From Candidatus Saccharimonadota bacterium (GTDB lineage Bacteria; Patescibacteriota; Saccharimonadia; Saccharimonadales; UBA4665), in the NCBI GenBank assembly GCA_036782475.1, contig DAIPYY010000001.1, positions 1 through 48,095 on the forward strand: 48,095 nucleotides of DNA. Reading direction: 5' to 3'. Position 1 is the first letter of the stretch, and every line of letters starts with the position of its first letter. The translations under genes were made by a program, and so were the position numbers. The notes under the pieces were generated by a model. That model searched no databases. It was given only the letters and a program-made list of their open reading frames with translations, and was not told the origin of the DNA. Shown here one piece after another: positions 25,245-48,095 of the stretch.

Positions 25245-25252
25245 TAAGCATA

Positions 25253-26542: not shown

Positions 26543-26575
26543 GAATGAAACTATCCTTGTCTCTTTGCAATATTT

Positions 26576-26591: not shown

Positions 26592-26718
26592 CTCAGAGCC
26601 ATGCACGCGACACAAGGCGGATATCAATTTTTGCGCAATTATGACGGTTTCCTGTAGCTTTTACGGTAGTTTTCGTGTTAAATATAACTATAAGCATAGG
26701 CGATACGTCTGAACCATC

Positions 26719-29898: not shown

Positions 29899-29910
29899 TC
29901 ATAGATGCCA

Positions 29911-31738: not shown

Positions 31739-34564
31739 TTATCTCAAGGCGCCGCGGATGTGTTGGGGTGAGTGGGTGAAGAGAGTGCGGCGGGTGTGAG
31801 TGCGGGAGTGATGACGCAGACGGTGGCCAAGCTCGCGGATGAAGATAAATATGGCGGCAGCGGCAAGAGCGAGCAGCCAATCGACCAGCCCAAGCGGTGC
31901 GGTCCGGAAATAGCTGCTGAGCGGCGTATAGATGATGGCAATCACGCAGACGAGCGAGAGGACCATCGCGCCCCACAAGTGGCGGTTATGCAGCTGGTAA
32001 CGCGTGAAAAGGCCATGCTCGGAACGACGCTGGAGGATATTGGCGAGCTGCGTTAGCACGATGGTGAGATACGTTATGGTCGTAGCGCCCATGTGGAGGA
32101 CGCTGTCGACATCTACATGGCCCGCACCGAGCCCGCGGCGCCAGTAGTAGAGGAGGTAGTTGCCGAAGGCCAGCGTGCCGATGAGCAGGCCCGCCCACAG
32201 CAAGTCGGCGATGCTGCGACGGTTCAGGATATGTTCGTGCAGGTTTCGCGGGCGTTCTTTCATGAGCTCGCCCTCGGGACGGTCGCGGCCGAGCGCGGCG
32301 ATAGGGAACAGCTCGGCGATGAGGTCGATGGCGAGGATTTGCATGACCGACAGCGCGAGCGGTATATGGAACAGGGCGGCGGCCGCAAGGCTGGCAAGGC
32401 TCGTGAAGAGCTCTGCCATATTGCTCGTGAAACAGCTGAGCGTGCCCTTTTGGATATTGCGGAAGATGGTACGGCCGTCCTGGACGGCGCCGACAAGCGT
32501 ATGGAAACTGTCATCGAGCAGGATGATGTCGGCGGACTGCTTAGCGACATCGGTGCCGGTCAGACCCATCGCCACACCGATGTTGGCACGTTTCAGGGCC
32601 GGCGCGTCGTTGATGCCATCACCGGTCACCGCGACGACCAGGCCGGCTTTTTCGGCGAGTTCGACGATGCGGAGTTTGTCCTCGGGCGCGACACGGCTGA
32701 AAATGGTGCCGCCGCGCCGGATGTGGGTGAGGATCTGGGCATCGCTCAGCCCTGGCAGTTCGTCGCCGGCGACGACCACGAGGTCTTCCGGTTTGTTTGC
32801 CAGACGCGCCCTAACGGCGACGGCGCGGGCGGTCACGGCGAAATCACCAGTGATGATGGAGACGTTCATATGAGCGTGATGCGCCGCGTCCATGGCCGCG
32901 GGTACTTCGTCGCGGAGCGGGTCCACCATACTGACGATACCGAGGAATGTCAGGTCGTGCTCGGCCGCTTCGAGATGCTGGTTGCGGGCGTCGAAGCCCC
33001 TCGGCAGCACACGATAGGCGTAAGCGAGGTTGCGTTGGGCAGCAGCAGCGTGCTGTTCGTTATACCCCAGGAAAAACTGGCGGTCACCCTCGCTAAGGGA
33101 CCGGACATGGCCGTGATCCCAGAGCTCGGTCGATTGCTCGAGCACCGTTTCGGGGGCGCCTTTGACGAAGAGGTACAGCTGGCCGCCGACTTCGCGTACC
33201 GAACTCATCCGTTTGCGGGCGCTGTCGAAAGCATACTCTTTGTGCTCGGGAAAGCGGGCGGCGAGCTCCAGTGGTTCGAGACCGGCTTTGCGGGCAAGCG
33301 TGATGAGCGCACCCTCCGTCGGGTCGCCGACCACGTGCCAGGCGGCATGTTCGCTGTCGGGCGGGTTCACGAGCGCGTTGCTGGCAAGCGCGCCTGTCTC
33401 GAAGAAAAGGTGCAGGTCCTTCAGTGCGGCGCCACTGAGGGGCTTACCGTGCCGGTCGCAGATGGCGCCATTGGCTTCGTAGCCGGTGCCGGTTACTTTG
33501 TATTCGGTGCGGCCGGCCAGCACCTGCTCGACGGTCATCTGGTTTTTGGTGAGCGTGCCGGTTTTGTCGGTCAGGATGACATTGGTCGCGCCGAGCGTTT
33601 CGACGGCCGACAGTTTTTTCACGAGCGCACGGACGCGGGCAAGTTTGCCGGCGGCACCGGCAAGAGCGGTGTTGATTTCCGCAGGCAATCCCTGGGGGAT
33701 GATGGAACTGGCGATACCGATCGCGAAGAGGAATGCTTCGCGGTAGGGAAGGCCGATCTTGATGGCGATAGGTAGCAGGATGGCACAGAGTATCACAGTA
33801 CCTTGGGTGACCCTGGTAGCGATATTGGCCATTTCACGCTGCAAGGGGCTCATGAGCTCGGTGGCAGCCTGGCTGAGACGGGCGAGCCGGCCGATCTCCG
33901 TCTGCATGCCGGTGCCGACCACGACAGCGAGGGCTTCACCGGTCGCGACCGTCGTTCCCATGAACACGAGGTTTTGCCGTCCGGACAGCGGCACGTCGGC
34001 ACTGAGGGCATGCTTGAATTTGCGGGTCGGATTGCTTTCGCCCGTCAGTGCGAAGTCGTTCGTCGCCAGTTCTTCTTCGGTAAGTACGCGCAGATCGGCC
34101 GGTACGCTGTCACCGGCTTCGATATGAACGATATCGCCGGGCACTAATTCCGCCGACTCGACTTCCCTGGCAACGCCGGAACGGATGACGCGGGCACGGG
34201 CGATGACGAGTTTTTCGAGTGCTTTGAGGGTTTTTTCAGCTTTGAACTCCTGCAGAAACCCGATGGTGGTGTTGAAGAAAACGAGCACGCCGAGCACGAT
34301 TGCCGCGCGCCGGTCTCCCAGATATAACGAGAGAGCACTACTGGCGAGTAGCAGGATGATCATGGCGTCCCAAAATTGCCGCAGATAGGTAATGGGCCAC
34401 GGCTCGCGCCGCTCCACCACGAGGACGTTCCTGCCGCCTTCAGTGAGACGTCTCGCCGCCTCCTCGTCGCTCAGGCCGTCCCGGGATGACGACAGCGCCG
34501 CCAGGACATCGTCCGGCGACATAAGGTAGTATGCATGCTGTTTGTCAGCGCCCACCGCAGCCAT
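31739..34564 (-). CDS. P-type (P2-like) cation-transporting ATPase
   Basis: Cation_ATPase_N-like start (LSDEEAARRLTEGGRNVL), TGES, DKTGTLT, TGD and GDGINDAPALK, with about 10 TM helices. The TM4 motif reads PQGLP. Confidence 0.9.
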   Translation of the reverse strand: MAAVGADKQHAYYLMSPDDVLAALSSSRDGLSDEEAARRLTEGGRNVLVVERREPWPITYLRQFWDAMIILLLASSALSLYLGDRRAAIVLGVLVFFNTTIGFLQEFKAEKTLKALEKLVIARARVIRSGVAREVESAELVPGDIVHIEAGDSVPADLRVLTEEELATNDFALTGESNPTRKFKHALSADVPLSGRQNLVFMGTTVATGEALAVVVGTGMQTEIGRLARLSQAATELMSPLQREMANIATRVTQGTVILCAILLPIAIKIGLPYREAFLFAIGIASSIIPQGLPAEINTALAGAAGKLARVRALVKKLSAVETLGATNVILTDKTGTLTKNQMTVEQVLAGRTEYKVTGTGYEANGAICDRHGKPLSGAALKDLHLFFETGALASNALVNPPDSEHAAWHVVGDPTEGALITLARKAGLEPLELAARFPEHKEYAFDSARKRMSSVREVGGQLYLFVKGAPETVLEQSTELWDHGHVRSLSEGDRQFFLGYNEQHAAAAQRNLAYAYRVLPRGFDARNQHLEAAEHDLTFLGIVSMVDPLRDEVPAAMDAAHHAHMNVSIITGDFAVTARAVAVRARLANKPEDLVVVAGDELPGLSDAQILTHIRRGGTIFSRVAPEDKLRIVELAEKAGLVVAVTGDGINDAPALKRANIGVAMGLTGTDVAKQSADIILLDDSFHTLVGAVQDGRTIFRNIQKGTLSCFTSNMAELFTSLASLAAAALFHIPLALSVMQILAIDLIAELFPIAALGRDRPEGELMKERPRNLHEHILNRRSIADLLWAGLLIGTLAFGNYLLYYWRRGLGAGHVDVDSVLHMGATTITYLTIVLTQLANILQRRSEHGLFTRYQLHNRHLWGAMVLSLVCVIAIIYTPLSSYFRTAPLGLVDWLLALAAAAIFIFIRELGHRLRHHSRTHTRRTLFTHSPQHIRGALR

Positions 34565-34572
34565 ATAGTTCT

Positions 34573-34580
34573 AGTATACA
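34573..34580 (-). promoter_or_regulatory. -10 TATACT abutted by TG, 8 nt upstream of the ATPase ATG
   Basis: Minus strand reads gTGTATACTagaactatATG. Confidence 0.45.
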
Positions 34581-34649
34581 CGCCCTTCGGTGGTATGCGT
34601 ATGGGAGTATGGCAGCGTTTTCTATGATTTTTGCTAAATGATATTTTTG

Positions 34650-34658
34650 TGATATAAT
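34650..34658 (+). promoter_or_regulatory. extended -10 TGaTATAAT, 6 nt upstream of ATG 34665
   Basis: tgTGaTATAATatgagcATG. Confidence 0.45.
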
Positions 34659-34664
34659 ATGAGC

Positions 34665-35294
34665 ATGGTACGACCTCATCGGCAAGCAGAATCCGATCCT
34701 AACTCCAGCCAAGACCACCCTTCACCCTACGGCGATATCGTCGAAGCGGTGACAACGGCGAAGTCCAAGCGCGAGATCATCGCCTCTCCCATGGACAAAG
34801 TGACAAGGTCGGTGATGAAAGGAGTGGCCCTGATCCCTCGTTTCGGCCATACTTTTGAGACGGCGGCGTATTCCAGGATAGATCTGCGCCTGAGGCGCCT
34901 CAGGGAGCATGGCATGATAACAGAGGTAGCTCAGGATACGCTCCTCAACTTTTTCGGTCATCCCAACGGTCACTCCATCGCCCGCGAAGATTACGAGAAG
35001 AGCCTGCGGACCATGCATGATCATATCGAAACAGCCGTCTTGAAGGAGCGGGAAAAAGCCCCGGAATCAGATGAGGGACCGCACAAGCAGACGATGAGCG
35101 AGATAGCCTTCGCAGTAGGCCGGTATTCTATGCATATGGCGATGAAATATGAAATTGGCAGTCCAACTGTCATGGCAAAAGGAGCGGGATTCCACACGCT
35201 TATTGAGCAAATGAGGCCGGAAGCACAGACCACGATACAGGCATGCGTCGGGTATGCGCTCCCGTCAGTCTTATATCGGGAACCAAAGATATAA
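34665..35294 (+). CDS. hypothetical protein
   Basis: ORF open from ATG 34659. That ATG abuts the -10 box, so ATG 34665 (MVRPHRQ...) is preferred. No recognisable motifs. Confidence 0.55.
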   Translation: MVRPHRQAESDPNSSQDHPSPYGDIVEAVTTAKSKREIIASPMDKVTRSVMKGVALIPRFGHTFETAAYSRIDLRLRRLREHGMITEVAQDTLLNFFGHPNGHSIAREDYEKSLRTMHDHIETAVLKEREKAPESDEGPHKQTMSEIAFAVGRYSMHMAMKYEIGSPTVMAKGAGFHTLIEQMRPEAQTTIQACVGYALPSVLYREPKI

Positions 35295-35296
35295 CG

Positions 35297-35302
35297 TATA
35301 CT
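35297..35302 (+). promoter_or_regulatory. -10 box TATACT, 7 nt upstream of the polA ATG
   Basis: cgTATACTtataactATG. Confidence 0.4.
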
Positions 35303-35309
35303 TATAACT

Positions 35310-37964
35310 ATGGCAGCGCCGCAGAAATTGGTCGTAATCGACGGAAAATCGGTGTTTTACCGCGGCTACTACGCCATGCCGAATCTCAGCACCAAAGACG
35401 GGCACCCGACCGGTGGGGTATTCGGCTTCGCGACGATGGCGCTCGAAGTCATCAAGCGGCTCAAGCCTGATTACGTCGCCGTAGCCTGGGACAAACCGAA
35501 GACGAACATCCGCTCCCGCCTCGCCATCTACCCTCAGTACAAAGCCGGCCGCAAACCGGCACCGCCTGATTTTTATGAGCAAATACCCGTCCTGCATGAA
35601 GTGCTAGACGCCTTCGGCTGGCCGCTCTACGAGCTGGACGACTATGAAGCGGACGACCTCATGGGTACGTTGGCGAAACAGGCGAGTGAACAGGGCATCG
35701 AGACGCTGCTCGTCACATCCGACATGGATGCGCTGCAGGTCGTCGGACCGCTCACGAAAGTGTTCGCACTGAAAAAGGGCCTGAGCAGTATCGAGCTTTA
35801 CTCGCCCGAGAGTTTCACGGCCAAATACGGGCTGGATGTCAGCCAGTTCCTCGACCTCAAAGCACTCAAGGGCGACAGCAGCGACAATATCCCCGGCGTG
35901 CCGGGTATCGGCGAAAAAACGGCCATCCAGCTGCTTCAGGAGTATGAAACGCTCGACGGCATTTATGACAACATCGTACTCATCAAAGATTCGGTACGGA
36001 AAAAGCTCGAAGCCGGCAAAGAGAGTGCCTATATGAGCAAAAAACTGGGCGCCATCTGGTGCGATGCACCGCTGCCGCTCGACCTTGAGCGCATGGACGG
36101 ACATCATGCGAACCCGGAGCGCATACGGGAACTGTTCGAGCAACTGGAATTCCGCAGCCTGGTCCGCCAGCTCCCCGAAGCCATGCAGGTGCTCGGTGAT
36201 ACCGGTACGTTCCATCCGGCGTTCGCGGGGCACGATCTCGCCGTGCCGAAACTGACGGTCATCGATGATGAGGAGAAGCTACAAGATGTCGCCATCCCTG
36301 AGGGTGCGGAGTGGGTCGTCATGTCGCGCTCGGCGGGGCAGGCCGGGCGGGATCCAGAGCTCGTAATCCTGTCTCCTTCGCCGGATACCGCCTACGCGTT
36401 CGATCTTACGAAAATCAGTGCGGAGAAAGTGGTAGCCACCCTCGGATCACGGGTGACACGGGTCATCGGGTACGACGTGAAGTCGTCACTGAAAACCCTG
36501 CTTGGCATGGGGCTCACGGACCTGCCGGAAGTCGCCCATGACGCGCTCGTCGCGAGTTTCGTCCTGAACAGCCTGCGCCGTGACTTGTCCCTGACCGAAC
36601 TGGCGGGAGACGTCGGGTATGATGGTTCGCCGTTCGAGGACCTGAGCGACGAAGAACTCATCGTCCGTGCACCGGAAATCGTCGGTATCCTGCGTGCGCT
36701 CGCCGCCCAGCAACGTGCCGCGCTCGTGGAAACACCGTCGCTCCAGCGCGTCGCCGAAGACATCGATTACCCGGTAATCCCGGCGTTAGCCCGGATGGAA
36801 TTCCGCGGCATCCAGCTCGACACGGATTATCTGAAGAAGTTCGCCGTCCAGCTCGACGACAGCGTCTCGGACCTGCAGCAGGAAATCTACGGCTATGCCG
36901 ACCAGGAATTTAATATCAGCAGCCCGGTGCAGCTGTCAGATGTACTTTTCGTTACACTCGCGCTGCCGACGCAGGGCATCAAACGGGGTAAGACCGGCTA
37001 CAGCACCGCCGCGAGCGAACTCGACAAGCTGCGTGCCCTGCATCCTATCATCGACCTGATCACCCAATACCGCGAAGTTACGAAGCTTAAAAACACGTAT
37101 GTCGACACCTTGCCGACCCAGGTCGACGGCCATAATCGTATCCATACGACGTTCAACCTCACCATCGCCCAGACCGGTCGCCTCAGCAGCACCGAACCGA
37201 ACCTGCAGAACATTCCCGTGCGCACGGAGCTCGGCAAACACATCCGTACCGCCTTCGTCGCGGGCAAGGGGAAGCGGCTCGTCAGCGCCGACTACAGCCA
37301 GTTCGAACTGCGCCTCGCTGCGGCAATGAGCGGCGACCACGACATGATAGCGGCGTTCAACCGCGGTGCGGACATCCATACGCTGACGGCGGCGGAAGTA
37401 TACGGCCGGCAGCCCGAAGACGTCACGAAACAGATGCGCTCTGCTTCCAAAACGGTCAATTTCGGCGTGCTGTACGGCATGAGCCCGCACGGGCTCAGCG
37501 CCGCGACCGGCATGACATTCACCCAGGCAAGGGAATTCATCGACAAATATTTCGCGCTCCGGAAACCGCTGCTCGGCTACCTGGAAAGCCTGAAAGAAAA
37601 GGCGAAAACGGACGGCTACGTCGAGACGCTCCTGGGCCGCCGACGGCCGATGCCGGATATCCATTCATCGAATTTTGCCGTGCGTTCCGCCGCGGAACGC
37701 GCCGCCATGAATATGCCTATCCAGGGGACCGAAGCTGACCTCATGAAGATCGCCATGGTCACCGTCGATAAAAAGCTTGCCGAAACGGTACCAAGTGCCC
37801 AACAACTGCTGCAGATACACGACTCTATCCTGGTGGAATGCGACGAAGCAGACGCCGAGGCGGTAGCAAAACTGCTCAAAGAAACGATGGAATCGATTTA
37901 CCCGGACCTGCCTGTCGCCCTCGACGTCGACACGAGCATCGGCGGCAACTGGGGCGAGCTGTAA
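35310..37964 (+). CDS. polA: DNA polymerase I (5'-3' exonuclease, degenerate 3'-5' exonuclease-like linker, family A polymerase)
   Basis: 5' nuclease motifs (YKAGR, DDLMGT, GDSSDNIPGVPGIGEKTA). Polymerase motif A (LVSADYSQFELRL), motif B (RSASKTVNFGVLYGMS) and motif C (LQIHDSILVE). Confidence 0.93.
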   Translation: MAAPQKLVVIDGKSVFYRGYYAMPNLSTKDGHPTGGVFGFATMALEVIKRLKPDYVAVAWDKPKTNIRSRLAIYPQYKAGRKPAPPDFYEQIPVLHEVLDAFGWPLYELDDYEADDLMGTLAKQASEQGIETLLVTSDMDALQVVGPLTKVFALKKGLSSIELYSPESFTAKYGLDVSQFLDLKALKGDSSDNIPGVPGIGEKTAIQLLQEYETLDGIYDNIVLIKDSVRKKLEAGKESAYMSKKLGAIWCDAPLPLDLERMDGHHANPERIRELFEQLEFRSLVRQLPEAMQVLGDTGTFHPAFAGHDLAVPKLTVIDDEEKLQDVAIPEGAEWVVMSRSAGQAGRDPELVILSPSPDTAYAFDLTKISAEKVVATLGSRVTRVIGYDVKSSLKTLLGMGLTDLPEVAHDALVASFVLNSLRRDLSLTELAGDVGYDGSPFEDLSDEELIVRAPEIVGILRALAAQQRAALVETPSLQRVAEDIDYPVIPALARMEFRGIQLDTDYLKKFAVQLDDSVSDLQQEIYGYADQEFNISSPVQLSDVLFVTLALPTQGIKRGKTGYSTAASELDKLRALHPIIDLITQYREVTKLKNTYVDTLPTQVDGHNRIHTTFNLTIAQTGRLSSTEPNLQNIPVRTELGKHIRTAFVAGKGKRLVSADYSQFELRLAAAMSGDHDMIAAFNRGADIHTLTAAEVYGRQPEDVTKQMRSASKTVNFGVLYGMSPHGLSAATGMTFTQAREFIDKYFALRKPLLGYLESLKEKAKTDGYVETLLGRRRPMPDIHSSNFAVRSAAERAAMNMPIQGTEADLMKIAMVTVDKKLAETVPSAQQLLQIHDSILVECDEADAEAVAKLLKETMESIYPDLPVALDVDTSIGGNWGEL

Positions 37965-38119
37965 GTTTCGCCGTATATTTTTCACGACTTTTCACGGAAG
38001 GTATTTCTCTCTGTTATTTTGGAACTTGAGTCCGCATGCAGTAAAACCGCTTACTGCCAGTACTGTGTCAGTGGAGTAGGCTAGAATGTGGCAATGGTAA
38101 CCATAACGAAGGGAGGAAA

Positions 38120-38380
38120 ATGGGAGTAGAAGAAGGAACGAACCGGATCATGCAGCTGAGGCAGCTCGCAGCAAACCACGGCGCTATGGACAACGATCCA
38201 TTCATGCCAGGCACCTACCCGGTGGCTGCCATGGAGGACGAAACTACCGATGAACCGGTCCCTGCAAGCATACCGCACCCGATACCAGAGGCGCTTTCGG
38301 AGGTAGCCCCGCCACTGCACACGCGGGTCATCGCCAAGATACGGGAAGCCATCAGACCATACCTGCGCGAAGCCGCCTGA
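38120..38380 (+). CDS. hypothetical small acidic protein
   Basis: 86-aa ORF with a strong SD (GAAGGGAGGaaaATG). Confidence 0.5.
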   Translation: MGVEEGTNRIMQLRQLAANHGAMDNDPFMPGTYPVAAMEDETTDEPVPASIPHPIPEALSEVAPPLHTRVIAKIREAIRPYLREAA

Positions 38381-38450
38381 CCCGTCTGACCAAAAGAATG
38401 CATATAGCACCGTCTACGAGCGTTCTTTTGCGTCAGAATGAAGTCACCGC

Positions 38451-38459
38451 TGCTATACT
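38451..38459 (+). promoter_or_regulatory. extended -10 TGcTATACT, 6 nt upstream of the dut ATG
   Basis: cTGcTATACTagatgtATG. Confidence 0.5.
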
Positions 38460-38465
38460 AGATGT

Positions 38466-38900
38466 ATGCATATTGCAGTGAAACGGCTGTCGGAGAAGGC
38501 GAGCCTGCCGGTGTACCAGACCGAGCATAGTGCCGGCATGGACCTGGCGGCGTGTATCGACGAGCCTGTTGTTATCGCACCGCACGAGCGGGCGGTCATC
38601 TCCACCGGCATCGCCATCGCCCTGCCCGAAGGCTACGAGGCGCAAGTCCGCGGCCGCAGCGGCCTGGCGGCGAAATTCGGCGTCATGCCGGCGAACGGCG
38701 TTGGCACGATTGATGCGGATTACAGAGGTGAAATCGGCGTGATTTTACTGAATACGAGCACCAAACCATTTACTGTGGAGCCCGATATGCGCGTGGCACA
38801 GCTCGTTATCGCGCGGTATGAACGCGCCGAATGGACAGAGGTCGATGATTTGGATGAAACAGCGAGAGGCGCCGGCGGCTTCGGCAGCACGGGGAAGTAG
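38466..38900 (+). CDS. dut: dUTP diphosphatase
   Basis: SAGMDLAA, RGRSGLAAKFGV, GTIDADYRGEIGVILLN and a C-terminal RGAGGFGSTG motif. Confidence 0.93.
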   Translation: MHIAVKRLSEKASLPVYQTEHSAGMDLAACIDEPVVIAPHERAVISTGIAIALPEGYEAQVRGRSGLAAKFGVMPANGVGTIDADYRGEIGVILLNTSTKPFTVEPDMRVAQLVIARYERAEWTEVDDLDETARGAGGFGSTGK

Positions 38901-38902
38901 CT

Positions 38903-39337
38903 ATGGAGCGGGACCTCTATTTCATCGCCGTAAAACTACTACTCCGTGACGGTGATAAGCTGCTCGTGACACACGACATTTTTGGCGACTGGGACCTGCC
39001 CGGCGGCCGCATCCGCATGAATGAATTCGAGACACCCATCTTCGATATTATCGAGCGAAAGGTGCAGGAAGAGCTAGGCACGGCAGTACGGTATACTCTC
39101 GGTAAACCTGTGGTGACATTCCGGGTGGAACGCTTCGAAGCGACTCTCCAAAAGAAGGTGCATATATTCGCTGTCGGATATGAGGCCACCTACCGGGGCG
39201 GTGAGATTATCCTGGGTGAGCACCATGATGATATGAAATGGGTTGATGTAACAACATACGACCCGGCGGCAGATTTTACCGGGGGATGGCTGAAGGGACT
39301 GCAAGAATATTTTGAGAACCTGGAGGGGGATTCGTAA
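38903..39337 (+). CDS. NUDIX hydrolase
   Basis: Nudix box LPGGRIRMNEFETPIFDIIERKVQEELG. Starts 2 nt after the dut stop. Confidence 0.8.
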   Translation: MERDLYFIAVKLLLRDGDKLLVTHDIFGDWDLPGGRIRMNEFETPIFDIIERKVQEELGTAVRYTLGKPVVTFRVERFEATLQKKVHIFAVGYEATYRGGEIILGEHHDDMKWVDVTTYDPAADFTGGWLKGLQEYFENLEGDS

Positions 39338-39766
39338 ATGGCGGAGCAACTATTTCACATCGGCATAAAAGCACTCGTCGTTAACGGCGGCGGGGAAATA
39401 TTGATGCTCAAGGAAGTGTTCCCGGACGGCGGCATGCAGTGGGATGTCCCCGGCGGCCGGATGGATCCGGGCGAGACGTTCCTAGAGACACTCTCGAGGG
39501 AGCTGCGCGAAGAGATCGGAGTCGAAGAATATTTGACGGCGGAACATTTTGCGACAGCGCTCTCCAACAAGCAGATCCGGACAGAACAAGGCCCGGTCGC
39601 GCTGGTGCTCATCGTTTTCAGGGTCACCCTGGCGGATGCGGTCATGCCGCAAGCCCTCGAAAAGGGCGTGGAGTTGAGCTGGCAGCCAATTGACCAGGCG
39701 GCGGAGCTGTTACTCGACAAATATCCGCGCGAATTCGTCGAAAAGATCACGGAGATGGCCGCCTGA
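39338..39766 (+). CDS. NUDIX hydrolase
   Basis: Nudix box VPGGRMDPGETFLETLSRELREEIGV. Starts immediately after the previous stop. Confidence 0.85.
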   Translation: MAEQLFHIGIKALVVNGGGEILMLKEVFPDGGMQWDVPGGRMDPGETFLETLSRELREEIGVEEYLTAEHFATALSNKQIRTEQGPVALVLIVFRVTLADAVMPQALEKGVELSWQPIDQAAELLLDKYPREFVEKITEMAA

Positions 39767-40650
39767 TGTGGAGGCGGTTCGGGGCATATCGGGCAGGGCG
39801 AAAGGTACCGGTCCAGCAGGGAGAGTTGTTCGCACGTGTCGCCCAAACACTGCGCAGCGAGGTGCGTATCCCACGGCGACGCTGGAGGCGACACACCGAC
39901 TTCCAGTACCTGCGCCCGCTTATCGAAGAGGCAAAAAACCGAACGAGGTACGCCGCGCAGCGTGCCGAACCGCAGGCGCTCGCAGCGGCGTGGCTGGAAG
40001 CACTCGTCCTGCAGGCACCGGGAGCGGTCCTGGCACAAGTCCAGATGGACAAGCACAAACATAGCTACCACAACAAGGCCGCACGCGTCATGGAGCTCAT
40101 CGATTTCAACGATTCATACGTCAGCGCGGTGCTCACGGTGCCGCCGGATCATTTGCATACTTTCAACAGTGATCTCAAGCGGCTCATCGACTGGTTCTGT
40201 GCGCGCGTCGGCGCGTGGACATTCACTGACAAGCAGTTCGAGGCGATCACGCACGGCCTGAGCCGGGAAATCGCCGTTTACCACGCGGCGAGGGCTGCTG
40301 GGTTCCAGGTGGTAATGACCACGCGTACCGAAGATGCCCTCGGTATTGACATGCACATCACCGACCCGGCGACCAGCCGGCGCGTCCATATCGACACCAA
40401 AACCAACTCGGCATTCCACTACCGCCTCATAGAGCTGCTCAGAGAAGGACGTCTCACCCAGGCGGACATCGACTTGGCGGAACGGCGGGGCTACACCGCT
40501 GTCATGAATGGGCACGGCGACGAGCGGGTGCGCGTGGTACTCTGGCGGATCGACCATGGCACACTGGGAACGATCGAGGATTTTGCCTTTGAGCGTACCG
40601 ACAGGCTCATAGCAGAACTTGTCGCGATACTCCGGGAGTACGGCGAGTAG
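39766..40650 (+). CDS. hypothetical protein (possible PD-(D/E)XK-like core in the C-half)
   Basis: TGATG overlap with the upstream NUDIX stop. The C-half has E...LGIDMHI...VHIDTKT, resembling a D...(D/E)xK nuclease motif. The true start may be internal. Confidence 0.5.
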   Translation: MWRRFGAYRAGRKVPVQQGELFARVAQTLRSEVRIPRRRWRRHTDFQYLRPLIEEAKNRTRYAAQRAEPQALAAAWLEALVLQAPGAVLAQVQMDKHKHSYHNKAARVMELIDFNDSYVSAVLTVPPDHLHTFNSDLKRLIDWFCARVGAWTFTDKQFEAITHGLSREIAVYHAARAAGFQVVMTTRTEDALGIDMHITDPATSRRVHIDTKTNSAFHYRLIELLREGRLTQADIDLAERRGYTAVMNGHGDERVRVVLWRIDHGTLGTIEDFAFERTDRLIAELVAILREYGE

Positions 40651-40712
40651 AGCACTTGCCGCGAAAACTGGGTAGCCCGGTGGCAAAAACCAGCCAATAA
40701 GCGTAAGGAGAA

Positions 40713-40721
40713 TGCTATACT
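40713..40721 (+). promoter_or_regulatory. extended -10 TGcTATACT, 9 nt upstream of the PrgI-like gene ATG
   Basis: aaTGcTATACTactaggagaATG. Confidence 0.5.
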
Positions 40722-40730
40722 ACTAGGAGA

Positions 40731-41840
40731 ATGGCTACCTATAAAGTACTACAGGATATTGAGGCAGAGGACAAGCTCGTCGGTCCGTTTACTTTGTGGC
40801 AGTTCATCTATCTGTTCGTGGCGGGCGCTTGCGGCTACCTGAGCTTCATCTCAATCGCAAAGAATGTGCCGATTTTCCTTATCCTTCTCCTGCCGGTTAC
40901 CTTGTTTGCGGGCTTCTTAGCCATCCCCTGGGGGAGTGACCAGCCGACAGAGATATGGGCACTTGCGAAACTGCGGTTTTTCCTGAAGCCGCGGCGACGT
41001 ATCTGGAACCAGGACGGCATGACTGAACTCGTCAGTATTACGGTGCCGAAGACGATCGAACGGCAGCTGACGAACGGGCTCAATCAGCATGAAGTCCATA
41101 GCAGGCTGAACGCCCTCGCAAGTACGCTCGACAGCCGTGGATGGGCGGTCAAGAATATTAATGTCAATTTATCCGCTTTGCCCACAGCCACGATGCAGCC
41201 GTCCGACCGCCTCGTCGATGTCGGGTCAATACCCCAAGAAGTGATAGCGGTGGATGTACGCCCGGGAGACGATATCTTGGATGAGACTGCCAATACGGTC
41301 GCTCATAATTTCGACGCGATGATCGACGAAAGAACCTCCCAGAAGCGGCAAAAACTGGTTGATTTCATGAACAACCCCTTGCCGGAATCGCCGTCAGCCG
41401 TCCCCGCGGCTGCACCGCTGCCGGCAGTATCTGCCGCACAGCCTGTTTCGGCGCCCGCTCAAGCGGCCCAGTGGTTTGCTCCGCCTCCTACTGCCGCTGC
41501 TCCATTTGCTGCCCCCATCATGTCGCCTGCCGCACCGCAGCCCGTCATGAGCATGGCAGTTCCGCAGGCGGTGGAGCCGACCGCCGCCGAAGAGGCGCTT
41601 GTCGCTCAGCTGAAAGCAAAAAACGAGCAACAGGAAAGCGCCTACACGCACCTGCAAAGTATCAAGACACCGGAAGAGCTGGAGGCGGAAGCGGCAGCCC
41701 AGCAAGTTGCTCCCCCAGAGACGCCGCCGCGTATGACATCAGAGAAGCAGGCTGCTATAATGAACCTATCACGAGACGACAATAAAAGTATTGCAACGCT
41801 CGAGAAAGAAGCGAATGAAGTGGTAATTTCGCTTCATTAG
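40731..41840 (+). CDS. PrgI/VirB3-like T4SS membrane protein with a long Ala/Pro-rich C-terminal extension
   Basis: N-terminus YKVLQDIEAEDKLVGPFTLWQFIYLFVAG plus two TM helices is the PrgI-family pattern found directly upstream of VirB4 in Gram-positive-type T4SS. About 250 extra residues follow. Confidence 0.7.
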   Translation: MATYKVLQDIEAEDKLVGPFTLWQFIYLFVAGACGYLSFISIAKNVPIFLILLLPVTLFAGFLAIPWGSDQPTEIWALAKLRFFLKPRRRIWNQDGMTELVSITVPKTIERQLTNGLNQHEVHSRLNALASTLDSRGWAVKNINVNLSALPTATMQPSDRLVDVGSIPQEVIAVDVRPGDDILDETANTVAHNFDAMIDERTSQKRQKLVDFMNNPLPESPSAVPAAAPLPAVSAAQPVSAPAQAAQWFAPPPTAAAPFAAPIMSPAAPQPVMSMAVPQAVEPTAAEEALVAQLKAKNEQQESAYTHLQSIKTPEELEAEAAAQQVAPPETPPRMTSEKQAAIMNLSRDDNKSIATLEKEANEVVISLH

Positions 41841-41866
41841 AGAGCGAACGAACAGGGTGGCATAAT

Positions 41867-42802
41867 ATGAATCCAAACCAACAATATCAACAACCAACTC
41901 AGCCACAACCCCAGTATGTACCACCAGCTGGCATGCCGGCAGCACAGCCGCAGTACGCCGCTACAGCACAGCCTATGCCAATCAATACCATACCGCCCGC
42001 TCCCTTGCAGGCCGTCAGTGCCGCGCCGGGTCAGCAGGCTCCGCCCGCCGGAGCTGGGGCAATAGCACCCAAGACAAATCCCAACAGCACGCAGAACACG
42101 CTTCTCATATCTGAAATTCGCGACGGTGTCGTCATCATGAGCGACGGCAGCTTCCGGGCGGTCGTCATGGTCAAAAGCATCAACTTTGACCTGATGAGCC
42201 CGCAGGAGCAAGAAAGCATCGAATACGGGTACCAGGGGTTCCTGAACTCGTTGTATTTCCCGATTCAGATTTTCCTGCGGTCGGAAAAAGTCGATTTACA
42301 GCCCTACATCGAGCGCCTCGACAAAATCCGCACCGAACACGACAACATGCTGCTCGCCATGCTGATGGAAGATTACATCAACTACATCGACCAGCTGGCA
42401 CTCCAGACCAACATCATGGACAAGAAGTTTTACATCGTGATACCGTATTTCCCGACCGCCAACCCAGAGATGGCGACGACCCAGAACAAGAATTTCTTTA
42501 AAGGGCTCGTCGAGATGTTCAGTAAGCAGGAAAACCATATTGTCATCAATGAGGCGGACCTGGAAAAAGCCAAGGCCGAGCTGCGCAACCGTGTCCAAGC
42601 GGTGTTGGGAGGGCTGCAGCAATGTTCCATCCAGGGGCTGCCGCTTGACACCCAGGAGCTCATCGAGCTGTACTATGACACCTACAACCCGGATACCGCC
42701 ACCAGGCAACAGCTCAAGAATTTCAATGATTTGACCGCTGACATCGTCACGAAAGGCGAGGGCATGGCACAACAGGCACATCTGCAAAGGGAGTTACAGT
42801 AA
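41867..42802 (+). CDS. stand-alone VirB4 N-terminal-domain-like protein with a Gln/Pro-rich N-terminus
   Basis: No P-loop. The segment order parallels the N-domain of the next gene: FRAVVMVKSINFDLMS with ARTYYVYGYPRQVFTG, FPIQIFLRSEKVDLQPYIERL with IDISIYVYPVESQLVLDNL, and KKFYIVIPYF with FFRFGLYFTIYA. The TAATG overlap couples it to VirB4. Confidence 0.55.
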   Translation: MNPNQQYQQPTQPQPQYVPPAGMPAAQPQYAATAQPMPINTIPPAPLQAVSAAPGQQAPPAGAGAIAPKTNPNSTQNTLLISEIRDGVVIMSDGSFRAVVMVKSINFDLMSPQEQESIEYGYQGFLNSLYFPIQIFLRSEKVDLQPYIERLDKIRTEHDNMLLAMLMEDYINYIDQLALQTNIMDKKFYIVIPYFPTANPEMATTQNKNFFKGLVEMFSKQENHIVINEADLEKAKAELRNRVQAVLGGLQQCSIQGLPLDTQELIELYYDTYNPDTATRQQLKNFNDLTADIVTKGEGMAQQAHLQRELQ

Positions 42803-44715
42803 TGGCAAAACAAAAGATCGATCCCGTCCTCTTGGCGCAGCAACAGCGGGCCCGCGAGCAGGCTGAAGTAGCCGAAGCATTCCGCAAAGGCGTGACGGCG
42901 CTCCGCGATTTTATCGCCCCCAGCAGTATTGAGTTCTTCGGCAGCTATTTCCAGCTTGGCACGCGCCTGGCCCGAACCTACTATGTCTACGGCTACCCCC
43001 GACAGGTGTTTACCGGCTGGCTCAGCGGACTCGTCAACCTCGATGAAATCATAGATATATCGATTTACGTCTATCCTGTCGAGAGCCAGCTTGTGCTCGA
43101 TAACTTACGCAAGAAAGTCACCCAGCTCGAAGCGGGCCTCCAGATCGACGCAGAAAAGGGCCGGGTACGCGATCCGAGCAAGCAGGCTGCCATCCTCGAC
43201 GCCGAGGAAATGCGGGACAAACTCCAGGTGGGCGAGGAGCGGTTCTTCCGTTTCGGACTGTATTTCACCATCTACGCCAACTCACAGGATGAGCTTGAGT
43301 TCATCAGCCATAAAGTGGAAAGTATGCTCGGCCAGCAGCTTGTCTACAGCAAAGCCGCGACCAGCCAACAGGAACAGGGACTCAACAGCGTCGCACCGCA
43401 GATGGTCGACCAGCTTCAAATCCGGCGTAACATGTCGACAGGCGCCATCAGCACGAGCTTCCCGATCACTTCGGCCGATCTTACCCAGGATAATGGCATC
43501 CTTTACGGCATCAACATGCATAATAGCGGATTGGTCATTTTCGACCGGTTCACACTCGAGAACGGCAACTCGGTCGTCTTCGCGAAATCCGGCGCCGGCA
43601 AATCATTCACCGTAAAACTTGAAGCATTGCGCAGCCTGATGTTCGGCACGGAAATCATCATCATCGACCCAGAGAATGAGTATGAACGCATGTGCGACGC
43701 TGTCGGCGGAGCGTATGTCCGGCTCAGCCTCAATTCTTCGACACGCATCAACCCGTTTGACCTGCCGAAAGTCGTTGACGTCGAAGAGGCCGACAACGCC
43801 CTTCGCTCCAGCCTGATCACACTGCACGGACTGCTCCGCCTCATCATGGGCGGCGCACAGGCGCAGCTCGTCGGCGGCAACACCACGATTATGCCGGCGC
43901 TCAGCCCGTCGGAAGAAGCCGACCTCGACGCGGCACTCATCACGACATACGAGAAAGCGGGTATCACCCAAGATCCTCTGACTCATACCGGAATCCCACC
44001 TACTATAACCGACCTCTATGATACGCTGCTACACATGGGTGGTAATGGGCCGCAGCTGGCCCAGCGGCTACGCAAGTATACTAGCGGCACGTTCGCCGGC
44101 ATATTCAGCCAGCAGAGCAACATCGACATCAACAACCCGATGGTCGTCTTCAACGTCCGCGATCTCGAGGACGAACTGCGGCCGGTCGCGATGTACATCG
44201 TATTGAATTACATCTGGAACAAGACGAAGAGTGACCAAAAACGCCGCATCCTCATCGTTGACGAGGCATGGCAGCTCATGAAGTACGAAGACAGCGCTAA
44301 CTTCCTTTTCAGCCTCGCCAAGCGCGCACGTAAATACAATCTCGGTATTACGACTATCACGCAAGATGTCGAGGATTTCATGGGATCGCGCATGGGCCGT
44401 GCTATCGTCGCCAATGCCAGTATGCAGATACTCCTCAAACAGAGCCCGAGCGCCATCGACGTTCTTGCCGACGTGTTCAAACTGACAAGCGAGGAGAAAA
44501 AGCGTCTTGGACAATTCCCAGTAGGACAAGGCCTGTTTTTCGCCGGCCAAAACCATGTCCACATCCAGGTCGTCGCCAGCCCCACCGAAACGGGACTCAT
44601 CACCACCAATCCGACGCAAGTACAGGCTATCAAGCAAGGCGACCTAAACCAGCCCCAGGGAACCATCGACCTTCAAAACCAACTCTACCCCGGGAGTATG
44701 AATAACTTGTCGTAA
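42802..44715 (+). CDS. virB4: T4SS VirB4-family ATPase (Gram-positive PrgJ/TcpF type)
   Basis: Walker A AKSGAGKSF (about 43582-43608), IIIDPENEY, Walker B RILIVDEAWQL, ITTITQDVEDF. Confidence 0.88.
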   Translation: MAKQKIDPVLLAQQQRAREQAEVAEAFRKGVTALRDFIAPSSIEFFGSYFQLGTRLARTYYVYGYPRQVFTGWLSGLVNLDEIIDISIYVYPVESQLVLDNLRKKVTQLEAGLQIDAEKGRVRDPSKQAAILDAEEMRDKLQVGEERFFRFGLYFTIYANSQDELEFISHKVESMLGQQLVYSKAATSQQEQGLNSVAPQMVDQLQIRRNMSTGAISTSFPITSADLTQDNGILYGINMHNSGLVIFDRFTLENGNSVVFAKSGAGKSFTVKLEALRSLMFGTEIIIIDPENEYERMCDAVGGAYVRLSLNSSTRINPFDLPKVVDVEEADNALRSSLITLHGLLRLIMGGAQAQLVGGNTTIMPALSPSEEADLDAALITTYEKAGITQDPLTHTGIPPTITDLYDTLLHMGGNGPQLAQRLRKYTSGTFAGIFSQQSNIDINNPMVVFNVRDLEDELRPVAMYIVLNYIWNKTKSDQKRRILIVDEAWQLMKYEDSANFLFSLAKRARKYNLGITTITQDVEDFMGSRMGRAIVANASMQILLKQSPSAIDVLADVFKLTSEEKKRLGQFPVGQGLFFAGQNHVHIQVVASPTETGLITTNPTQVQAIKQGDLNQPQGTIDLQNQLYPGSMNNLS

Positions 44716-44724: not shown

Positions 44725-47700
44725 ATGGCATCGTCACAAACACTCATTCCTACGGGAGAAAATCAATACGACGACGAAGATATGGAGCGCCTGAGGCGCC
44801 AGGAACGTGGTGTCACAGCCGCGGAAGACGGCGCTCCGACCGATGCTGTCGATATGAGCGGCATTGACCCGACCGCTGACCCCGACTATGTCGCACCTGC
44901 CGGAAAAGCTGGCGGCACTGCTGCCGGCGCCCCTAACTCCGCCTCAAACCTCGAACAAACAGCCCTTGGCAACCAGCCGGGCCTCGACGCGGAAGACGGT
45001 TTTTATACGGGAGGTGGAGGAAAGGGCAGAAAGCGCCGAAAATTCTGGACCAGACGACGGGCAATGGCGGGCGGCACTATCGCTGGATTTTTTGTAGGCG
45101 GGGGTATTCTCCTGTCGCCGTTCGTGATGGGTCCGCTTGAGTTCATCCATTTTGCACAGAGCCTTTCGGGCCCACACTTCGGTATATCCGAGCGTGCCAG
45201 CACACGAAATATAACCCGGTTCTATAAATTTATAACCGGGAGGGGCACAAGCACCTGTACCGCAAAAAACTGTCTCGTCCAAGATGGCGGCAAAGGAGAC
45301 ACACGCCTGAATTTCCTCGAGAGAAAATACAATAAAGTTATTTTCAAGAACATCGAGAGTAAGGGCTTCAAGATGTGGACCGATTCGAGGACGCAAACTT
45401 TTAAGGGATGGCGTATTGATACGTCCTCTAAAAATTCGCCGTTCAAGGGCATGAATGAGTCGATGATCGAAGATGCCCTGAAAGCATACGGCGTTAAAAA
45501 AGCAGATATTAAAAAAGTGGGCGGCACCGGGGGGTACTGGATAAAAAACGAGGCGCTGTTTAAGCGCGGCCAGACAAGGCTTGTAATGGCGATGTTGCAA
45601 GAGTCCGGCTATAGCAAAGTAGGATCGTGGATTAGGGCACGGCAACTCTGTAAATTCGCCGGCTGTGGTTTCCACCCCCTGAAAATATTGGACGAAAAAC
45701 TCAATGACAAACTCGACAAGGGACTCAAAAAACTGAAAGAAGAGTATGAAAAAAGCCGCAGGGCCAGTATCACCGGCACTGAAGCGTCAGGGGCGACTAT
45801 CGATACCACCAACACGGAGGAGCAAACAACCGGCGAGGACGGAGAACGCACCAACCAGTCTGTCGATGAATCCCTGAAGACCACGAAAACCACGACATCG
45901 CCGACGGCAATCAGTGATTTCATGAAATCTTTTGCCGCTCGTCCTTCCACGAAGATAAGTGCCAATGTTCTTGATGTTGTCGGTTATGCGTGTCTCGCCG
46001 CCAATATATATAAGGCTGCCGGCGATATCAACTTCGACCAAACTGTTATGCCGGCAATTAGGTTGGCAACGGAGCAAATCGCGACAGGCTCCCAAATAGA
46101 AGCAAGCAGCCTCATAGATGGTACCTTTAATTCAACAAGTCTTGAGCTTGCACATGAATACCTCGAGGCAAAGGATTCTTCTGGCAAAACAACAAGCTGG
46201 AGCGATGCTGCAAATATCCGCCAAAACAACGGTCTTAGCGGCGGGACGGATATTTCCTCGGATAAAAAAGAAATCTTATCGAACCCGGGCAAAGGCCCAT
46301 CCTGGCTTGAGTGGACCGAACCGATGGTAGACTTTTGCAGCAATCAAGCCATACAAGCTACTATGGGGGTACTTAGTATTGGGATAGGAGTGTTGAGTGG
46401 TGGTATGGTATCTACGATCGTGGGGGCTGTCGTTGGGTATTTTGCCGCCCCGGCAGCCCTAAATTTAATCGCGCAGAGTGTGGCAGGTAATGCTCTCGAT
46501 ATTGCCGGAGTAAAAGGAATCGAGATGGGTCAGTACGCTGATTTTGGGGCATTCTTTGGTGCTAATCTCGCAAGGCAGATGCGTGGAGGTAGGATCCTCA
46601 GCAGCGCAAGCGCGCTCAAACTTGCGCAAGATAATATGGATACCAAAAACGAAGAATTCGCATCGCAAAGTATCGCCTATAAACTCTTCAATGCATATGA
46701 CAGCAAATCGCTCATCTCGCGGGTCGTCGATACCCAGTCTACCTATGCGACCGAAAACATTGCGTCGACGATTAATAACTTCCTGGGTATCGGTACGAGC
46801 ACATTATCAACCATCGGCGGACTTTTCTCGAAAAAATCGAGCGCAGCAACTACTATGTACGATTATGGCATCCCGATGGTTGGATTCAGCCTCGAAGAGC
46901 AGGAAAACCCCCTTACGGAAAACCCGTATGAGAACGCAGCAATCGTAGGTGCCTTCCTCGACACTCCTGCCAGTAGCAGCCTCAAGGATCGTGCGCTGCG
47001 TTGTAACGGTGTAGAGTTCTACAAAGACGATCAATTTGGCTGGAGCATACGTAGCATCGCCGATCCGAACGCGGGCGCCGAGAATAATGTATTTCAAAAA
47101 TATGTCACCGGACATCTTGATAGTGACTGCGGTACCGATCCGGTCATCGCCGCCGCTGATTCGGATGCTACCGTTGCGACGGGAACGGGGTACGTAGCAG
47201 CAGCGGAAGATGACATGTGGACGCGCATGCGGAAGTTCATCGACGACCTCAGTGAGTTTGAGTCATACACGTGTCTTATGGCCGATGATGAAACCTCATG
47301 CGATAACAGCGGCTTCGGAGCTACTACTGCCGCCAGCAGTAGCACGGTCAATACCGACGACCTATACAAGGACTCAACCTCTATAAGTTGCGACACTCGC
47401 ACGAAAGATCTAGGAACACAAGAGGTCCAGCATGAAAGCAGTACATTTAAAATCAGGGTCTGCGGGATAAAAGAAATACCCAGTTCTGGACAGGAAAGCA
47501 CCAAAGGAAACCAGTACTACATCGAAGGCGCCGATGGCATGACAATCGTCAACTCAAGAGTATCGACGATCTTTATGAACCTGGCAGAGGATGCGACTGC
47601 GAATAATACTAAACTTTCAAGTAGCTCAAGTTTCCGCATGCACTCACATCAGCAAGATTTATGGAACGCCAATCCCGACCCGGAAGCAGTGGGGCCCCCG

Positions 47701-47925
47701 GGAAAAAGCAATCACGAAGTAGGAATAGCGGTGGACTTCAATACGGGTGGGTCGAAAAAATCAGGCGCATCATGCGACGCGAGGGCGACAAGTAGCTCAG
47801 CCATGTGGAAGTACCTCAACGGCTCATCGGGAGAGCCGGGCGCACAGAAATTCGGAATATACCAGTACGCCGTCGAGCCGTGGCATTGGGATGCATCCCC
47901 GACACGCTGTAAGGAGCCTTTGTGA
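44725..47925 (+). CDS. large membrane-anchored protein with a C-terminal M15 (VanY-type, LAS fold) D-Ala-D-Ala peptidase domain; candidate T4SS cell-wall hydrolase
   Basis: TM helix near aa 115-140 and a central TM cluster near aa 545-590. C-terminus has SSFRMHSHQQDLW, SNHEVGIAVDF (47707-47739) and EPWHWD (47875-47892), the SxxR / SxHxxGxAxD / ExxH zinc-peptidase pattern. Confidence 0.75.
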   Translation: MASSQTLIPTGENQYDDEDMERLRRQERGVTAAEDGAPTDAVDMSGIDPTADPDYVAPAGKAGGTAAGAPNSASNLEQTALGNQPGLDAEDGFYTGGGGKGRKRRKFWTRRRAMAGGTIAGFFVGGGILLSPFVMGPLEFIHFAQSLSGPHFGISERASTRNITRFYKFITGRGTSTCTAKNCLVQDGGKGDTRLNFLERKYNKVIFKNIESKGFKMWTDSRTQTFKGWRIDTSSKNSPFKGMNESMIEDALKAYGVKKADIKKVGGTGGYWIKNEALFKRGQTRLVMAMLQESGYSKVGSWIRARQLCKFAGCGFHPLKILDEKLNDKLDKGLKKLKEEYEKSRRASITGTEASGATIDTTNTEEQTTGEDGERTNQSVDESLKTTKTTTSPTAISDFMKSFAARPSTKISANVLDVVGYACLAANIYKAAGDINFDQTVMPAIRLATEQIATGSQIEASSLIDGTFNSTSLELAHEYLEAKDSSGKTTSWSDAANIRQNNGLSGGTDISSDKKEILSNPGKGPSWLEWTEPMVDFCSNQAIQATMGVLSIGIGVLSGGMVSTIVGAVVGYFAAPAALNLIAQSVAGNALDIAGVKGIEMGQYADFGAFFGANLARQMRGGRILSSASALKLAQDNMDTKNEEFASQSIAYKLFNAYDSKSLISRVVDTQSTYATENIASTINNFLGIGTSTLSTIGGLFSKKSSAATTMYDYGIPMVGFSLEEQENPLTENPYENAAIVGAFLDTPASSSLKDRALRCNGVEFYKDDQFGWSIRSIADPNAGAENNVFQKYVTGHLDSDCGTDPVIAAADSDATVATGTGYVAAAEDDMWTRMRKFIDDLSEFESYTCLMADDETSCDNSGFGATTAASSSTVNTDDLYKDSTSISCDTRTKDLGTQEVQHESSTFKIRVCGIKEIPSSGQESTKGNQYYIEGADGMTIVNSRVSTIFMNLAEDATANNTKLSSSSSFRMHSHQQDLWNANPDPEAVGPPGKSNHEVGIAVDFNTGGSKKSGASCDARATSSSAMWKYLNGSSGEPGAQKFGIYQYAVEPWHWDASPTRCKEPL

Positions 47926-48095
47926 TGAGATTTAGTCGGACGACAAGGTGGTCACGCAGACACTCTGCTTTACTGGCGTATAGTATCCTTATTTCGTTTA
48001 TACTGGTAGTTTCTTCGAGTCCGGCAGTGCAAGCTGCCCTAAGTGACGAGCAAAAAGCTGTATTCAAAAGGGAAATCGGTGCATTTGATGTAGAC
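47925..48095 (+). CDS. secreted hypothetical protein, N-terminal part (3' end outside window)
   Basis: ATG 47925 overlaps the previous stop (TGATG). Translation MRFSRTTRWSRRHSALLAYSILISFILVVSSSPAVQA/ALSDEQ... is a typical signal peptide. Not in the ORF track because no stop is reached. Confidence 0.6.
   Translation, partial: MRFSRTTRWSRRHSALLAYSILISFILVVSSSPAVQAALSDEQKAVFKREIGAFDVD

Follow-up and report, generated by a model that had tools for sequence, protein, structure and literature searches.

The window, the 48,095-nt stretch of DNA analysed here, which is the whole of contig C1 of a saccharibacterial genome (0.81 Mb, 86.5% complete), contains at 44725..47925 on the forward strand an open reading frame (ORF; coordinates exact) encoding a protein of 1066 residues followed by a stop codon. 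This protein is a SEML1_0007-type saccharibacterial type IV secretion system (T4SS) protein, an orthology assigned by position and architecture. It is probably bound to the secretion machine and anchored in the membrane, with an external zinc peptidase that would cut peptidoglycan stem peptides beside the machine, together with a lysozyme-type enzyme encoded by the neighbouring gene.

Saccharibacteria and other Patescibacteria living on hosts breach two Gram-positive-type walls, and among secretion systems their T4SS was the first to be shown essential for its own carrier bacterium. Within this machine, a predictable chemistry is limited to the module-bearing protein described here and its lysozyme-type neighbour, which hence offer the most direct experimental handle on it. 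An essential gene of the SEML1_0007 type with a DD-peptidase fold has already been published for a cultured relative; the new points are an unnamed conserved module, a single membrane anchor, frequent exchange of the C-terminal enzyme (hereafter the head) and the mosaic origin of the window's copy, which may help in the choice of constructs and in comparative tests of host specificity.

The peptidase head and the published counterpart

A VanY/M15B (LAS) zinc peptidase domain was identified at residues 942-1055 (47548..47889, + strand) using Pfam PF02557 (E 7.2e-10, 39.2 bits, curated cut-off 25 bits), and a scan of the whole genome with the same model returned the same position (47548-47889, E 5.8e-11, 41.7 bits). 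The original prediction, which was made from the sequence of the window and had named a profile hidden Markov model search as its check, was borne out in this respect: the three LAS motifs that it had cited are all present (SSFRMHS, residues 968-974; SNHEVGIAVDF, residues 995-1005; EPWHWD, residues 1051-1056), and the metal ligands, whose loss it had regarded as damaging, are retained on alignment (H997, D1004 and H1054). A profile built from ten heads of the VanY subtype found in the window was searched against the PDB, yielding YodJ of B. subtilis (4ox3, 1.5e-12), the LdcB-type structures 4mph and 4jid (~2e-12), the VanY-type structure 5hnm (2.7e-11), LdcB of S. pneumoniae (4ox5, 1.1e-8) and the phage enzyme Ply500 (2vo9, 2.7e-6). 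The S-x-[FY]-R, S-x-H-x-x-G-x-A-x-D and E-x-x-H motifs of the head align with the known motifs of the solved M15B enzymes, which in LdcB and VanY hold the substrate-binding arginine, two zinc ligands, and the catalytic glutamate with the third zinc ligand, respectively. Alignment to LdcB and YodJ accordingly identifies R971 (47635..47637, + strand; opposite SGYR/SGFR) as the substrate-carboxylate arginine, H997 and D1004 (47713..47736, + strand) as the first two zinc ligands, and E1051 and H1054 of the sequence EPWH (47875..47886, + strand) as the catalytic glutamate and the third zinc ligand. All five residues are invariant in the family heads of this subtype (62/62), and this conservation speaks for selection acting on the activity. 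By its residues the head appears to be a catalytically intact VanY/LdcB-like zinc peptidase, the activity itself being predicted.

Residues 866-941 (47320..47547, + strand) comprise a Ser/Thr-rich linker and then the beta-rich front of the head (CxxxTxDLG...IRxC). C889 and C913 are jointly present in 56 of the 62 heads, and C1017 and C1062 occur together or are lacking together in 53 of them. The three motifs are shared with the LD-carboxypeptidases LdcB, YodJ and DacB and the DD-carboxypeptidase VanY (MEROPS M15B; 4ox3, 4mph, 4ox5 and 5hnm), with profile E values from 1e-12 to 1e-8. However, these carboxypeptidases are small (~190-270 residues) housekeeping or resistance enzymes, unlike the T4SS-linked protein, and the head differs from them in its extra cysteine pairs, an inserted loop (residues 1006-1020) and the beta-rich N-terminal extension.

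A gap of 9 nt separates the gene from the stop codon of virB4, which is overlapped by an AAGGA sequence. The gene occupies the slot directly after virB4 that the original prediction had given it, and the same slot is occupied by the same kind of protein in relatives and in Southlakia. At its other end, the stop codon of the gene shares nucleotides with the following ATG (TGATGA; gap of -1 nt), which begins the next gene, an AAGGAG sequence lies upstream of that ATG, and a scan of the + strand between the T4SS genes of the operon found no convincing terminator. The operon order is PrgI, TrsD, VirB4, the 1066-residue protein and a secreted partner. A gene of this type follows VirB4 in every relative locus where the upstream gene lay in the fetched stretch.

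In Southlakia epibionticum ML1 the T4SS (SEML1_0006-0019) is essential for epibiotic growth (Wang et al. 2023, PMC10633639), and the order there is SEML1_0010 (PrgI), SEML1_0009 (a gene for 293 residues), SEML1_0008 (VirB4), SEML1_0007 and SEML1_0006 (PMC10633639, Tables S1 and S2). SEML1_0007 has 1113 residues, the ECOD Hedgehog/DD-peptidase domain at 951-1105 is the only domain assigned to it, and its top Foldseek matches were named Peptidase M15B and M23 domain proteins, while SEML1_0006 has two lysozyme-like domains and a cysteine proteinase (PMC10633639). In transposon sequencing (Tn-seq), 123 insertions in SEML1_0007 were recorded in the input DNA, 29 at T0 and 1 at T1 and T2, giving the calls GD, ES and ES, and the gene is called essential for epibiotic growth (PMC10633639). 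SEML1_0007 has been mentioned as a possible substitute for VirB1 (Quinonero-Coronel et al. 2025, PMC12102498).

The 1066-residue protein resembles SEML1_0007 in its slot directly after VirB4 in a PrgI, short TrsD-like gene and VirB4 order, in its size (1113 versus 1066 residues), in the combination of an unassignable body with a C-terminal Hedgehog/DD-peptidase (LAS) fold, in the lysozyme-type secreted protein encoded next and in coming from the same phylum-level group. It differs in that the T4SS of the window is split into two loci, of which the half considered here does not lie beside dnaA, and the head subtype may also differ. The shared slot and architecture make the gene the positional and architectural counterpart of the published one.

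Anchor, topology and the conserved module

Residues 1-112 (44725..45060, + strand) form an acidic, poorly conserved and probably disordered cytoplasmic tail, with a YDD motif at residues 15-17 and a basic patch, KGRKRRKFWTRRR, immediately before the anchor. The sole robust transmembrane anchor, residues 113-135 (45061..45129, + strand), was located using hydrophobicity and insertion-energy scans; over 143 family members the insertion energy of this segment has a median of 1.4 kcal/mol and is below 5 in all. Across the family, the 16 residues that precede the anchor contain a median of 6 Lys plus Arg, compared with 0 behind it, so the N-terminus is placed inside. In the otherwise unconserved tail a [VI]-Y-D-[DPE] motif was noticed (residues 14-18, 44764-44778), which occurs within the first 40 residues in 37/127 full-length family members and might be where a cytoplasmic partner, for instance VirB4 or TrsD, docks.

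Two further hydrophobic segments were examined: a helix of marginal hydrophobicity at residues 411-429 (45955..46011, + strand; median 4.7 kcal/mol), in which G420 and C423 are invariant, and a Gly-rich hydrophobic stretch found by the insertion-energy scan at residues 541-588 (46345..46488, + strand). Both are Gly-rich and marginal, with insertion-energy medians of 4 to 6 kcal/mol, and may be buried helices or a helical hairpin, either of which puts the C-terminal part outside. The original prediction of a membrane-anchored protein therefore stands, whereas its second transmembrane region does not, as only the segment at 113-135 is robust. We infer an external C-terminal part from the presence of one anchor only, the linkers rich in Ser and Thr, the acidic character of residues 430-865, the joint presence or absence of C1017 and C1062 and the invariant cysteines of the module at 760, 802, 850 and 859, which fit an extracytoplasmic location; this topology, with the head outside the cell, is thus a prediction from sequence.

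Family alignments (425 representative clusters at E<=1e-30) delineated a conserved, unnamed module at residues 136-865 (45130..47319, + strand), which contains the motifs GPLEFIHFAQ, GDTRLN, FHP, IRQNNG, GQYAD, SIAYKLFN, YDYG, NPYxNA and DxxWxRxRxFIxD and ends with C850...S858-C859...G863, followed by the linker and the variable end. The region of about 800 residues of unassigned domains that had been placed at 100-900 is real, but its extent was corrected to approximately 113-865. No match to the module was obtained among the Pfam, NCBIfam, PHROGs and PDB sequence profiles. A resemblance to phage tape-measure proteins was also considered and found to be unsupported, there being no profile match, and the module was likewise rejected as a degenerate VirB6 fused to a hydrolase: hhalign gave a probability of 1% against the VirB6-like protein encoded at 26719-29895, and five or more strong transmembrane helices are expected of VirB6/TrbL, versus one robust helix in the 1066-residue protein.

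An exhaustive search for the family yielded 1324 representative clusters at E<=1e-3, 1048 at E<=1e-10 and 425 at E<=1e-30, with alignments spanning approximately residues 100-870 in most of the best 150. When the module was used as a single-sequence query, 6 of 401 genomes sampled across the phylum gave matches, all within the same order. A ten-row profile matched 105/121 genomes of the order, a figure that includes head-only matches to small VanY genes; module matches below 1e-40 were found in at least 40 of ~120 order genomes, in ORFs of 786-1232 residues, and the module profile matches large ORFs in many families of the order. Word-index searches for more relatives added two further proteins only (P0009 and P0010), and pattern scans found one extra locus in genome contigs and none in metagenomes. 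No strongly conserved 8-mer was found in the family. As a family-level description the module appears to be new, that is, unnamed, conserved, apparently T4SS-specific and detected only in this order.

Head exchange, the partner hydrolase and the target wall

For a census of heads, the tails of 147 family members were cut after the end of the module and clustered, and representatives were checked with Pfam. The sample was ranked by a query that carries the VanY head, which inflates the VanY share. The VanY subtype of the window was found in 62 members, a second VanY subtype in 4 and a third LAS type with HxxGxAxD and HxH in ~32; the other heads were CHAP (10), M23 (4), Beta-lactamase2 (4), NlpC/P60 (3) and, in one member each, Amidase_2, Amidase_3, Peptidase_M15_4 and Alginate_lyase2, with 3 unassigned, and in ~25 of 151 sampled members the tail was short or lacking. 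One conserved N-terminal region is thus combined with many C-terminal enzyme domains that are unrelated to one another, as in polymorphic effectors. LAS/M15-type heads are the commonest, at 99/126 labelled members in a sample partly ranked by the query's own head, and SEML1_0007 had already been annotated with a DD-peptidase fold and as essential; the view that pairing an M15 peptidase with a T4SS is unusual was consequently abandoned for this lineage.

A FastTree phylogeny of the module with 126 labelled leaves requires at least 39 changes of head type, compared with a mean of 58 (range 51 to 64) for shuffled labels on the same tree, indicating that heads are inherited to some extent yet exchanged often. 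The module of the window is nearest to those of P0003 and P0004 (49.7% identity), which bear the other VanY subtype, and its head is nearest to that of P0006 (67% identity), a protein with a module that is ~30% identical and lies outside the eight best matches. To judge from these identities, the window's copy is a mosaic. A drop in GC content limited to the head, as a sign of recent import, was not seen, the GC content at third codon positions (GC3) being low over the whole gene. Among the headless family members two are complete as ORFs (803 and 854 residues); they stop where the module ends, with the partner gene coming next.

Only the start of the next gene lies in the window (47925..48095, + strand), as the contig end cuts the gene that begins with the ATG overlapping the TGA stop. 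It encodes a signal peptide followed by ALSDEQKAVFKREIGAFDVD, and motifs resembling it come after the signal peptide in the partner hydrolases of relatives. A tblastn search of the other 79 contigs of the 86.5% complete genome with nine partner proteins from relatives gave no match to the continuation of this gene. In relatives the slot after the module gene holds a secreted multi-domain hydrolase, usually Phage_lysozyme2 plus a second domain, and the partner gene always adds further hydrolase domains. At the P0007 locus CHAP is found on the module protein and Peptidase_M15_4 on the partner, so the two genes seem to split a toolkit of a glycosidase plus peptidases. No immunity-like small gene was seen next door in the loci read, where the next gene is the secreted hydrolase, although no systematic search was made.

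Two observations on partner genes were made in passing. At the locus of a CHAP-headed member (L015 9644-11683, L016 6009-8048) the partner combines Phage_lysozyme2, Exo_endo_phos and Peptidase_M15_4, and an Exo_endo_phos (endonuclease/phosphatase) domain on the partner of a T4SS wall hydrolase is unexpected. Some other partners (L008 1-650, L012 1-774) have a GDSL/SGNH-like motif (GDSLSVG, GDSITHG) behind the common N-terminal motif and could be peptidoglycan O-acetyl esterases.

In the preferred reading the protein would be bitopic, with a short cytoplasmic tail, one anchor at 113-135 with the N-terminus inside, a T4SS-specific external module of ~730 residues, a Ser/Thr-rich linker and the head. 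The conserved module would tie it to the secretion machine, the head would cut peptidoglycan stem peptides next to the machine, and the secreted lysozyme-type protein of the next gene would cut the glycan strands, so that both enzymes together would open the wall for channel and pilus. Such a pair would parallel PrgK, TraG, CwlT and TcpG, which unite glycosidase and peptidase in one protein. The activity of the head as a peptidase, the bond that it cuts, the link of the protein to the machine and the wall targeted (own, host or both) are all predictions in this scheme. Several points weigh against it. The bond cut by the head cannot be read from the sequence; the nearest solved enzymes are carboxypeptidases and other M15 members are endopeptidases, and since LdcB and VanY trim stems rather than cross-links, opening a hole would need an endopeptidase activity. 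The proposed activity and location of the family members come from sequence, and an AlphaFold2 model of the whole protein (ten-sequence alignment) had a mean predicted local distance difference test (pLDDT) score of 49 and a predicted template modelling (pTM) score of 0.47 and gave nothing below E 1 in a Foldseek search of the PDB, so that structure supports neither the topology nor the fold of the module. About one sixth of the family members are headless, so the head is not indispensable to the family. Finally, orthology with SEML1_0007 was assigned by position and architecture and not by sequence alignment, and the Tn-seq loss of SEML1_0007 could partly reflect polarity on essential downstream genes.

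Three other explanations were weighed. Action on the host wall had been raised in the original prediction, and frequent head swapping on a chromosomal system would be compatible with it. The explanation in which the module is a T4SS-bound carrier and the interchangeable enzyme breaches the wall or capsule of the host at the contact site, heads being exchanged as lineages meet hosts with different envelopes, is a possible but distinctly less likely account. It would explain the many changes of head type on the tree (at least 39, with a mean of 58 for shuffled labels), the mosaic nature of the window's own gene and the presence of heads for different bonds and even for targets other than peptidoglycan (Alginate_lyase2, Beta-lactamase2, Amidase_2, Amidase_3, M23, CHAP and NlpC/P60). 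With a T4SS that is encoded on the chromosome, and a VirB4 that is for the most part monophyletic in Patescibacteria, the target would be expected to stay constant if it were the producer's own wall, and frequent exchange that includes alginate lyase and beta-lactamase-like heads is more easily explained by a variable one such as the host envelope; the T4SS is, moreover, essential only in the context of epibiotic growth (PMC10633639). However, the protein is anchored in the membrane of the producer, whose own wall is the first barrier met, the donor-wall hydrolases of Gram-positive conjugative T4SS are equally modular, an adjacent immunity-like gene was not seen in the loci read, the family sequences are metagenomic and come without host information, and the head carried by the query skews the census. 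The further idea that a module with interchangeable heads directed at the host envelope is a host-range determinant of saccharibacterial epibiosis is put forward tentatively; if true, head exchange would track host envelope chemistry.

It is rather improbable that the module is the functional part, a structural T4SS subunit spanning or organising the wall zone, with the head as an accessory that is possibly wall-binding or redundant. The complete headless members with a partner gene next to them, the share of sampled members with a short tail or none, the further hydrolase domains that the partner gene always supplies and the presence of the module, which is far more conserved than that of any head, all point in this direction; against it, none of the 62 heads of the window's type varies at a catalytic residue, and an enzyme head of some kind is kept by most members. 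The nearest solved relatives, the LdcB, YodJ and VanY carboxypeptidases, would suggest a plain housekeeping role, in which a DD- or LD-carboxypeptidase matures the cell's own peptidoglycan and merely happens to be encoded beside T4SS genes. This explanation was rejected as very improbable because a separate canonical anchored VanY/LdcB-type carboxypeptidase is encoded elsewhere in the genome, in a 270-codon frame (C66:2483-3292, + strand) that scores 136 bits with PF02557, compared with 39-42 bits for the T4SS-linked head (41.7 bits in the genome scan). The 270-residue enzyme is presumably the housekeeping one and the T4SS-linked head a separate, divergent copy; in addition, the tail, anchor and conserved region that carry the head (~860 residues together) follow virB4 in every relative locus for which the upstream gene was in the fetched stretch, and the head is freely replaced by unrelated enzymes.

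Related systems and the genomic setting

The VirB1-type hydrolases of Gram-positive systems, namely PrgK (pCF10), TraG (pIP501), CwlT (ICEBs1), TcpG (pCW3) and Orf14 (Tn916), are encoded in T4SS operons near virB4, have an N-terminal anchor and modular peptidoglycan-cleaving domains and are needed by the machine. They join a glycosidase (SLT or muramidase) with CHAP, NlpC/P60 or LytM and have no large conserved non-enzymatic module. The 1066-residue protein shares with them the N-terminal anchor and the location in a T4SS operon. However, no glycan-cleaving domain (SLT, muramidase or glucosaminidase) was matched in it by Pfam or NCBIfam, the glycosidase being on the neighbouring gene in relatives, and its M15B domain follows an unrelated module of ~730 residues. 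It is therefore VirB1-like in its working but is not a member of that family. Since the glycosidase of relatives is on the next gene, that gene is the closer analogue of VirB1, PrgK and CwlT, and the role of T4SS wall enzyme first assigned to the 1066-residue protein needs to be qualified: it is an anchored protein with an intact VanY-type LAS peptidase in a T4SS operon, as proposed, but is one of two wall enzymes at the locus.

A second large wall hydrolase was noted outside the T4SS loci (C15:1673-4486, - strand; a 938-codon frame read from stop to stop, with no start chosen), in which a hydrophobic segment and a long linker rich in Pro and Thr are accompanied by a region with a lytic-transglycosylase-like motif and, at the C-terminal end, a VanY domain (33 bits). 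By combining SLT with a peptidase, this layout resembles PrgK and TraG more closely than that of the T4SS-linked protein does.

The X-Tfe effectors of the bacteria-killing T4SS of Xanthomonadales have a constant region combined with many wall-degrading domains, which are often exchanged, and act in contact between bacteria; they are soluble proteins with the constant signal at the C-terminal end and with immunity genes alongside. The family described here is similar in its constant region with alternative wall-degrading domains, in their frequent exchange and in its link to a T4SS at bacterial contact, but differs in that the 1066-residue protein is membrane-anchored and constant at its N-terminus, and in that the loci read showed no immunity gene.

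The operon half begins with a PrgI/VirB3-like gene (40731..41840, + strand; Pfam PrgI E 1.2e-8), followed by a TrsD-like gene encoding a detached N-terminal part of VirB4 (41867..42802, + strand; NCBIfam TrsD 1.1e-6, together with matches to the front part of VirB4 models), a slot that is labelled TraC-like in relatives, and by a VirB4 ATPase of the CD1110 (monoderm) family (42802..44715, + strand; NCBIfam NF045971 353.6 bits, cut-off 325 bits; Pfam P-loop_TraG 7.7e-29). The T4SS genes lie in two loci ~11 kb apart, and within the contig the half with the 1066-residue protein is not beside dnaA; in the typical case among related genomes the T4SS block adjoins recF-dnaN-dnaA. The PolA protein of the window is 63-78% identical to that of ~80 metagenome-assembled genomes, nearly all from Candidatus Saccharibacteria or Saccharimonadales.

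GC3 divides the window into two groups of genes (22811-31668 and 44725-47925 versus 31739-44715). Values of 0.49-0.63 were obtained for the surface-exposed T4SS genes (0.545 for the gene of the 1066-residue protein, 0.536 for the VirB6-like gene, 0.513 for the gene at 25317-26510 beside it and 0.485-0.631 for the pilins) and 0.43 for the adjacent PP2C gene, compared with 0.70-0.75 for housekeeping genes, virB4 and the TrsD-like gene. The genes valS and argS were found near the T4SS genes (window 6994-12189 and the T4SS loci), and valS, argS, tsaD and murE lie near the T4SS in Southlakia (SEML1_0027, 0044, 0048 and 0049), so the wider synteny of this chromosomal region seems to be conserved despite the split of ~11 kb.

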